DNA from: a virus | Lineage: Duplodnaviria > Heunggongvirae > Uroviricota > Caudoviricetes | DNA length: 11,456 nt | Direction: 5' to 3' (one strand) | IMG/VR virus record: IMGVR_UViG_2648501669_000018 | Span: 1 to 11,456 of that record | In this document: positions 7,003-10,000 of the stretch, one piece after another | How the letters are laid out: the number at the start of each line of letters is the position of its first letter | Position numbering within the stretch: position 1 is the first letter of the stretch | Position numbers and translations under genes: made by a program | Notes under the pieces: model-generated | The model's input: the letters and a program-made list of their open reading frames with translations, nothing else | Told to the model about the DNA's origin: nothing | The model's database searches: none

Positions 7003-10000
7003 TCAGCTGATACTGATACCTGCTGTGGATTTCTTCATCACCACAACCAGCAGATCGCTGATACTGGTTGTTGGTGTCCAGTCATTCGCTCCTGATGAAG
7101 ATACGGTGAATGTCAGTGTCAGCGTCCCCTGTCCGGCAGGCATATCTATAACTGAGGAAAATACGCCCTGAACATCCGTCGTGGACTGATTAAAAATCTC
7201 CTGACCATTGCGGGTCACTCTTAACCGGCAGGTTGAATACCAGTATGACTGTTGGTTATTACTGTTGAAATTCTCATGCTTACCACCGCGGAATAACACT
7301 GGCGGTATCATGACCTGCCGGTCAAATTTCTGATCATCACTGATTCTTACCGTGATGGTGCCACTGGCATAACTGTTCGTGCGGGGGAAAGACTTGCTGA
7401 CCGTTTTGACAATATCGCCTTCAATCTGATTGGCTGACAGTTTCCCCTTAATCTGACAGTTCTCATTAATCGTGACGTTGTTGAGCGTCCCGGAGTTCGC
7501 ATTCACACTGCCACTGATATCCGCATTTTTAGCAGTCAGCTTTCCGTCCGGTGTCAGGGAAAATGCCGGTGGATTTCCACCACTGGTAATGGTGGGGGCC
7601 GTCAGGCGCTTCAGGAACACGTCGTTCATGAATATCTGGTTGCCCTGCGCCACAAACATCGGCGTTTCATTCCCGTTTGCCGGGTCAATAAACGCGATAC
7701 GATTGGCGGCAACCAGAAACTGACTCAGTTTGCCTTCCTCTGTATCCTCCATGCTGAGGCCAATACCCGCGACATAATGTTTGCCGTCTTTGGTCTGCTC
7801 AATTTTGACAGCCCACATGGCATTCCATTTATCGTTGGCATCCTTCCACTCTTTCGAAAACTCATCCAGTCTGCTGGCGTTATCCTCCGTCAGGTCGACT
7901 TTTTCCAGCAACTCCTTGCCGAGATGAGATTCGGTTATCTTGCCTTTGAAAAAATCCAGGTAACCTTCCGCATCATCGCTCGCCCGACCGACAGCCTCCA
8001 CGAATGCCGATTTGCCAACGGTGTTCACACTGCGAACGTAAAAATAATAATCATGGCCCGGCCTGATATTGATACTGGCAGCTATCCAGTACAGCGCCGT
8101 GCCAAGATAGCGGGCTGTGGTTTCAACCTGCCTGATATCAGCAATCCGTTTTTCCGAGAACCAGAACTCAAACTGTACCGTCGGGTCATAAACCGCAAGA
8201 TGCGGCGTGGCGGTTATCTGAAAATAGCCCGGCGTCAGCTCAATCCGAGACGGCGCTGCCGGTGCGGCAATCCGGAACGATACCGATGCCGGATCGCCCT
8301 GCTGTCCCCACGCATTTACCGCCCGGACTGTCAGCCTGTAGTTCCCTGGCGCCAGTTGCGTGAAGCGGTATGTGGTTTCCGTCGTCCGGGCCGTGCTGAC
8401 CAGCCGCTCACTGCCGTCATCCGCTGCCACGGTCAGGCGAAGCATAAAGCTCACCCCCTTCACCACCTTCGGCGTATCCCAGCGCGCCAGCACCTGATAT
8501 TCCCCGCTGTCTGCGGTGACTTCGGCAGTCAGGTGCTGCACCGCTGGCGGCGTGACACCATTCACCGTGCCGCTCTGGTCGCCGTCAAAGTGCGCCCCGT
8601 TATCCACGATGGCCTCTTTTTCCGGTACATGCTGCACGGCGGTGATGGCATACGTGCCGTCATCGTTCTCACGGATACTCACACAGCGGAACAGGCGCTG
8701 GCGCAACGTCGGCAGCTTCAGCCCCCACACGCTGTATTCTGCAACACCATCAGGAACCCGGCTCACTTTCACCTTCACGCCGTCGGTGACGGACTGGACC
8801 TCCACGCTGACCGGATTACCCTGACCGTCAACCAGGCTTATCAGCGTGGTACCGGAGGATGGCAGCGTGATTTCACGGTCGAGCGTCAGCGTCCGGGTCT
8901 GGCTGTTTACCGCCAGCACGCGCCCGCCGATGCTGATACCGGCATAGTCATCATCACAGATTTCAATGACATCACCCGGCACATGGCGAAGCCCTTCTGC
9001 GCCCACGCTGAAGTCCACGGTCTGCGTTTCCAGCAGTTCTGTTTTAATCAGCCACAGCCCGGCGCGGTGTGCCTGCCCCCGGCTGGTACAGCCAAAAGCA
9101 TCCATCTTCGTGACATTACGACCGTAACGGGCAATGGCCTGCGTATCCTCCACAAGCTCTGTCGCCGTCTCCCAGCCGTTATCCGGGTCAATCCAGTTCA
9201 CCTCAACGGCATTATGGCGGTCCTTCAGGGCGCTGAAGCTGTAGCGGAACGGCGCGCCATCATCCGGCATCACCACATTACTGCGGTTATAGGTCCACAC
9301 CTTATCTGATGGTCGGTCCTGCACGAACGTCAGCGTCTGCCCGTTCCATACCGGCATACAGCGCATCGCCGAGCAGAAATCACTGAGCACATCCCACGCC
9401 TTACGCTGTGTGGTCAGGTAAGCGTTACAGGTGATGCGCGACTCCGTGCCGCCAAAACCGTCCGGCACCGACTGGTCGCAACACTGGCCGATGACATACA
9501 GCGCCCATTTATCCACATCTGCCGCACCAAGACGTTTACCCATGCCGTAGCGCGGGTGGGTCAGCATATCCCACAGACACCAGGCCATGTTGTTGCTGTA
9601 TGCTGGCTTAAACGTTCCGTCCCAGATACCGCTGTATTGCCGCGTCTGCGGGTTATAGTTCGACGGCACCTGCAGAATACGCCCGCGAAGATGATAATTA
9701 CGGCTCACCTGCTGGCTGCCGAACTGTTCCGAGTCCACCTGCACGCCGACCAGTGCCGTGTTCGGGTAGCACTGTTTCACATCGATGATTTCGGTGTATG
9801 ACGACCAGAGCGTTTTGTTCTGCAGCTGGTCTGTGGTGCTGTCCGGCGTCATCCTGCGCATCCGGATATTAAACGGGCGCGGCGGCAGGTTACCCACCAC
9901 CACCGAGGCCAAATACTGCGAGGTGGTTTTGCCCTTAATGGTGATGTCTTTTTCCGTCACCCAGCCACCGTTACGTTGTATCTGAACCAGCAGGCGGACT

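Follow-up and report, generated by a model that had tools for sequence, protein, structure and literature searches.

A lambdoid J protein with a lambda-type body and an A8/phi330-type tip predicted to bind OmpC

We conclude that the J protein encoded in the 11,456-nucleotide stretch of viral DNA analysed here (IMG/VR record IMGVR_UViG_2648501669_000018, positions 1 to 11,456; hereafter the window) very probably unites a lambda-allele body of ~975 residues with a recombined, A8/phi330-type tip of ~150 residues, whose trimer would dock on the porin OmpC and not on LamB, as judged from related tips and analogous complexes. Modular exchange of J specificity among lambdoid phages is already known, as are the receptor of this allele and its OmpC-bound structure; indeed, the A8-type allele has been characterised functionally, put to use in engineering and solved as a complex with OmpC. 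The biology itself is ordinary, and the case is one of a real receptor-binding cassette swap that was detectable from reading the sequence alone.

The J gene and its genomic setting

The J gene of the window (Table 1) carries the six Pfam domains expected of this protein, all 6 above their gathering scores and in the order FNIII-A_GpJ, Phage-tail_3, Ig_J, Ig_J_second, Phage_Tail_Tip and Ig_GpJ_C. Its neighbours lie on the same strand, with Lambda_tail_I upstream and Ail_Lom and a phage_tail_N side tail fibre (Stf) downstream, and the annotation of Escherichia coli MB53 agrees, the counterpart of J in that genome bearing the RefSeq label gpJ. In length, domain architecture and gene order (K-I-J-lom-stf), the window matches lambda, the J protein of which (P03749; PDB 8XCJ, 8IYK and others) binds LamB.

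Strain MB53, which comes from poultry in Cuba, is 100% identical to the window across positions 6300-7500, and the tip DNA of E. coli A37 likewise has 100% identity. Its prophage adjoins ybhB-bioA, and the lambda att core lies 314 nt beyond the left end of the window, none being present inside the 11,456 nt of the window itself. The element that hosts this J gene is most likely a lambdoid prophage at the lambda attachment site of the E. coli chromosome, and we infer that it still makes virions.

Table 1 Features of the tail gene region, with positions as numbered in the window
Feature	Position	Strand	Basis or remark
J (tail tip attachment / central tail fibre protein), 1132 aa + stop	7003..10401	-	ORF list, translation, Pfam
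Lambda-like J body, residues 1-973 (hub, FNIII, helical shaft, most of beta-prism fibre)	7483..10401	-	Lambda alignment
Divergent specificity region of J, residues 974-1132	7006..7482	-	43% identity to lambda J
Ig-like receptor-binding domain, residues 1008-1132	7006..7380	-	Pfam PF12421 Ig_GpJ_C, E = 3.1e-36
Hairpin, residues 1043-1052, holding the 5-aa insertion relative to lambda	7246..7275	-	Equals phi330 E953-S962
V1077 codon	7171..7173	-	A in A8 and phi330; V in phage 21
Hairpin ANDWTP, residues 1105-1110	7072..7089	-	Equivalent of phi330 A1015-P1020
D1107 codon	7081-7083	-	N at this position in A8, phi330 and phage 21
3' part of K, opening the tail cluster before I		-	
I, upstream of J	10462-11133	-	Pfam Lambda_tail_I
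Terminator-like hairpin and T-run, 18 nt past the J stop, before lom	6966..6985	-	Consensus scan
lom (Ail/Lom outer-membrane beta-barrel protein, 199 aa)	6337..6936	-	Pfam Ail_Lom, E = 3e-120
Terminator-like hairpin and T-run directly after lom	6289-6310	-	Consensus scan
Side tail fibre (stf), 1103 aa	2967-6278	-	ORF, Pfam

An abrupt break in identity to lambda J

Measured against lambda J (NC_001416 15505-18903, 1132 aa), residues 1-973 of the window protein are identical at 949 of 973 positions (97.5%, with 24 differences), whereas residues 974-1132 are identical in only 71 of 164 aligned columns (43%). The original prediction, that J is lambda-like save for its final ~150 residues, is thereby borne out, and across residues 983-1132 (window 7006-7455) the pairwise alignment yields 64 identical columns out of 155 (41%), which is far from a near-identical C-terminus. 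The transition between the two parts is sharp. A maximum chi-square scan locates the break at residue 982, with a chi-square of 456 compared to 17.3 for the highest of 300 permutations; blastn recovers 95.7% DNA identity to lambda from window position 11456 down to 7445 and none thereafter; and mismatches begin to cluster at nucleotide 2921 of J (window 7481), such that identity falls as a step within about 40 nt. Divergence had been predicted to begin at position 7455; the true start lies ~26 nt further upstream in the gene.

Within the tip (residues 986-1132), identity to lambda is 41%. Compared with lambda, the window protein lacks 4 aa near lambda residue 1012, carries 5 extra aa at 1048-1049 and lacks 1 aa near 1103-1107. 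All three sites fall among the indel hot spots described by Maddamsetti et al. 2018 for the J specificity region of 1,207 natural J homologues (PMC6646904), with indels at 3 of the 4 known hot spots. The lambda-like sequence and loop lengths of the LamB-binding domain (residues ~985-1132) are absent from the window protein. To judge from its sequence, the divergent end is a divergent homologue of the same family, which would have kept both fold and family membership. Non-homologous replacement of the tip was considered and rejected, given the match to PF12421 and an alignable identity of 41-43%. Consequently, the prediction of a swapped tip holds with respect to the abrupt identity step and the mosaic structure of the gene, while its description of the region as replaced is too strong for a domain that retains the PF12421 fold and family.

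Mosaic structure of J and its flanks

Comparison with different phages places the limits of homology at different points. With lambda as the reference, the non-homologous DNA does not end at the J stop but extends over the spacer and most of lom as well, and homology returns only at window position 6464. Relative to phage 434, homology ends at 7445, the same junction as for lambda, but returns already at 7041 and thus takes in the 3' end of J (~12 codons), the spacer, lom and the start of stf. Phage phi330 presents the reversed pattern, its J body having 77% DNA identity to the window while the stretch from 7794 to 5851 (tip, lom and start of stf) has 91%. Taken together, the lambda, 434 and phi330 boundaries show that the tip cassette proper corresponds to approximately window 7042-7481, and that it has been exchanged independently of both flanks.

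The step-like break and these discordant mosaic patterns lead us to reject gradual drift: J is a recombination mosaic. An alternative would be that the C-terminal difference arose by accelerated point mutation under diversifying selection in a single lineage, without exchange of a cassette, and the specificity region of J is indeed fast-evolving and rich in indels (PMC6646904). However, we regard this as extremely unlikely, since identity to lambda is lost within so short a distance, and since nearly the same tip (91-99% DNA identity) rides on the J body of phi330, only 77% identical, and is carried by many Stx phages. Furthermore, the specificity region, set at residues 960-1132, has a phylogeny unlike that of the remainder of J (PMC6646904). 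Under the preferred reading, the last ~150 residues of J would have been gained by homologous recombination at conserved junction sequence.

The Lom protein of the window shares 45% identity with lambda Lom, 97.5% with that of 434 and 96% with that of phi330. The gene is thus the 434/phi330 allele and not that of lambda, and the region without lambda homology accordingly reaches past J through most of lom. Two terminator-like hairpins were observed (Table 1), where shuffled sequences lead to an expectation of 0.8, and phage 21 possesses an annotated terminator after J at the position that matches the hairpin at 6966..6985.

Identity of the tip allele

A search of PDB sequences returned the chains named 'A8 gpJ 713' (9WCA and 9WCB), which are identical to the window protein at 207 of its C-terminal 209 residues. 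Past residue 964 (the last 169 residues), the two differ only by V1077A and D1107N, and wherever A8 departs from the window ahead of the tip, over the compared residues 713-1132, it carries the lambda residue. Brodel et al. (Nature 2024) took two C-termini of J from natural E. coli prophages, A8 being one of them, and joined them to lambda J at residue 964, thereby retargeting particles from LamB to OmpC (PMC11338833). A8 gpJ resembles the window protein in length, in its lambda-type body and in its hairpins, which are alike save for one residue, yet the published A8 is a chimera engineered on lambda J, while the J of the window is a natural mosaic. The sequences of A8 and of the second tip, 1A2, were not found in the supplement to that study, and a literature search found no publication describing 9WCA and 9WCB.

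A second close relative is the tip of vB_EcoS_phi330 (PV189401), an OmpC-dependent siphophage from EHEC, which is identical to the window at 143 of 147 positions (97%) over residues 986-1132. Tip, lom and the start of stf are shared between the two, but phi330 differs in its J body, in the annotated length of the protein (1042 aa) and in its genus (Pankowvirus). On the strength of these matches, the tip may be assigned to the A8/phi330-type allele of the Ig-like receptor-binding domain, set on a lambda-type J body.

Evidence for OmpC as the receptor

Direct information on receptor use is available for both relatives. PDB 9WCB holds A8 gpJ together with outer membrane porin C (OmpC), the latter as three chains. 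Delivery by A8-tipped particles was assayed in cells deleted for lamB and in lamB/ompC double mutants to which OmpC variants had been supplied by complementation, and the chimera reached about 90% of cells at an MOI of ~20, with the OmpC of MG1655 (K-12) and that of EDL933 alike (PMC11338833). Phage phi330 fails to lyse the Keio ompC mutant unless ompC is supplied from Plac-ompC, in experiments that did not separate the contributions of J and of the side tail fibres (PMC12502783). OmpC is most likely the receptor of the window allele (that with V1077 and D1107), given its near-identity to A8, for which a complex with OmpC has been solved, and to phi330, for which OmpC dependence has been published. 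The earlier expectation of a receptor other than LamB agrees with these near-identical tips.

The comparison with OmpC phages that had been proposed as a check, which yields 2 differences to A8 and 143 of 147 identities to phi330, yields only 43% identity to the tip of phage 434 (OL657227), a phage that likewise uses OmpC (PMC11101478). The body of 434 J has 95.8% DNA identity to the window up to position 7445, but its tip has other loops and extra insertions. Indeed, neither the J loop sequences nor the details of contact with OmpC are conserved between phi330 and 434 (PMC12502783). A 2026 receptor-prediction preprint covers the GpJ proteins of Drexlerviridae, and the lambda tip is excluded from its GpJ alignment.

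By analogy with the solved complexes of lambda J with LamB and of A8 gpJ with OmpC, the trimeric tip of J would dock on the OmpC trimer. [quoted passage not shown] The former is identical in sequence in the window, A8, phi330 and phage 21, while the latter reads ANDWTP in the window as against ANNWTP, with 5 of 6 residues matching (N1107D). In lambda, cryo-EM shows that loops of the receptor-binding domain insert into the porin trimer and that the bases of these domains spread and the beta-prism fibre rotates, after which the helical shaft flips, the FNIII strings come apart and the tube opens (PMC11101478). Given that the upstream elements are 97.5% conserved, the same relay is naturally inferred for the window protein, in which the conserved fibre would pass the signal on to tail opening as in lambda, with OmpC taking the place of LamB as the trigger.

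Phage 21 and the case for LamB

The tip of phage 21 J (OL657228 CPT_21_21) is identical to that of the window at 121 of 147 positions (82%), with 26 substitutions and no indels over residues 986-1132; its J body has 96% DNA identity to the window, and both of its hairpins are as in A8. However, the native receptor of phage 21 is reported to be LamB, and a single mutation in J reportedly confers use of OmpC, while use of OmpF is likewise acquired by mutation (PMC11336670; bioRxiv 10.1101/2023.04.13.536812). Phage 21 was consequently dropped as homology support for OmpC. Departure from the lambda sequence alone does not predict loss of LamB. Moreover, since a tip that is 82% identical and has like hairpins nonetheless uses LamB, receptor choice within the A8/phi330/phage 21 allele family can hinge on few residues. 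The preference for LamB or OmpC would then be set by some of the 26 differences between the tips of phage 21 and the window.

It follows that the window tip might still use LamB, alone or together with OmpC, in the manner of an ancestral phage 21, and V1077 is indeed common to the window and phage 21 but not to A8. We nevertheless consider this very unlikely. The window tip is nearer to A8 (2 differences) and phi330 (4, over residues 986-1132) than to phage 21; phi330 fails to plate on an ompC mutant in which lamB is intact (PMC12502783); and A8 delivers without LamB (PMC11338833). OmpC thus continues to be the favoured receptor.

The V1077/D1107 sub-allele

A further reading accepts binding to OmpC and supposes that the minority D1107 sub-allele (together with V1077) shifts which OmpC variants are recognised, making host range narrower or broader than that of A8. 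Residue D1107 lies within the hairpin modelled on the OmpC rim (PMC12502783), and it aligns with D1107 of lambda, which is one of two residues critical for the laboratory gain of OmpF use and sits at a natural as well as a laboratory hot spot of specificity (PMC6646904). The tips of A8 and 1A2 already differ in the OmpC variants that they accept (PMC11338833), and the D form is in the minority, an exact 39-mer with D1107 occurring in 58, and that of the N1107 form in 1,400, of the 5,426 complete E. coli genomes. On the other hand, a change of Asn to Asp is both single and conservative, and the strains that have the D form come from many different host species, which gives no sign of a narrow niche. 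In our view this shift in recognised OmpC variants is possible but doubtful. That the Asp at position 1107 may act as a natural one-residue switch of host range, either retuning the accepted OmpC variants or shifting the balance between LamB and OmpC, we hold to be improbable.

Distribution and significance

Among the 5,426 complete E. coli genomes searched, about 1,480 genome records contain a best match of at least 95% identity to the 405-nt tip cassette (758 at 99% or more and 726 at 95-99%), whereas the tip of lambda itself occurs in only 98 genomes, the five matches listed being laboratory strains. The window allele is therefore not rare, and among sequenced strains it is the LamB tip of lambda that is the rare one. 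The 453-nt interval 7003-7455, which encodes residues 983-1132 and the stop codon, has matches of at least 95% identity in 48 records of the phage collection, the majority of which are Stx1a- or Stx2a-converting phages, accompanied by temperate coliphages such as 2H10, Chlobot, Turner and the PhiR series. The value of these observations lies in annotation: for the prophage of the window, and for the approximately one quarter of complete E. coli genomes that carry nearly the same tip, the receptor to be predicted is OmpC and not LamB.

Other genes in the window

Several further features lie to the left of the J region. At 330-1661 on the plus strand, between the att end of the prophage and the tail-fibre genes, is a gene for a MASE4-GGDEF diguanylate cyclase (as identified by Pfam), which is present in 771 of the 5,426 E. 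coli genomes; a megablast of the phage collection gave no match to window ~74-1746 among the matches listed. The gene dgcX is reported to lie next to lambdoid prophage DNA at attB in every case (PMC4287979), and the cyclase gene of the window, a candidate dgcX, fits it in position and description.

Two direct copies of a remnant of the 3' end of tfa, at 1757-1911 and 2735-2929 on the minus strand, are 84-91% identical to the 3' end of lambda tfa, and RefSeq labels both as partial pseudogenes. They flank a class I SAM-dependent methyltransferase gene (2061-2729, plus strand) that is shared with phages 2G7b and ev243.

The side tail fibre combines a lambda-like N-terminal domain and a long low-complexity stretch rich in Ala, Ser and Thr with a C-terminal Peptidase_S74 intramolecular chaperone domain and, given this domain of its own, should not need a Tfa chaperone. 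Its counterpart in MB53 is annotated at 1204 aa, compared to 1103 aa here, and the two do not align across window ~4185-4930, which points to a polymorphism of length or sequence in the middle of the fibre.
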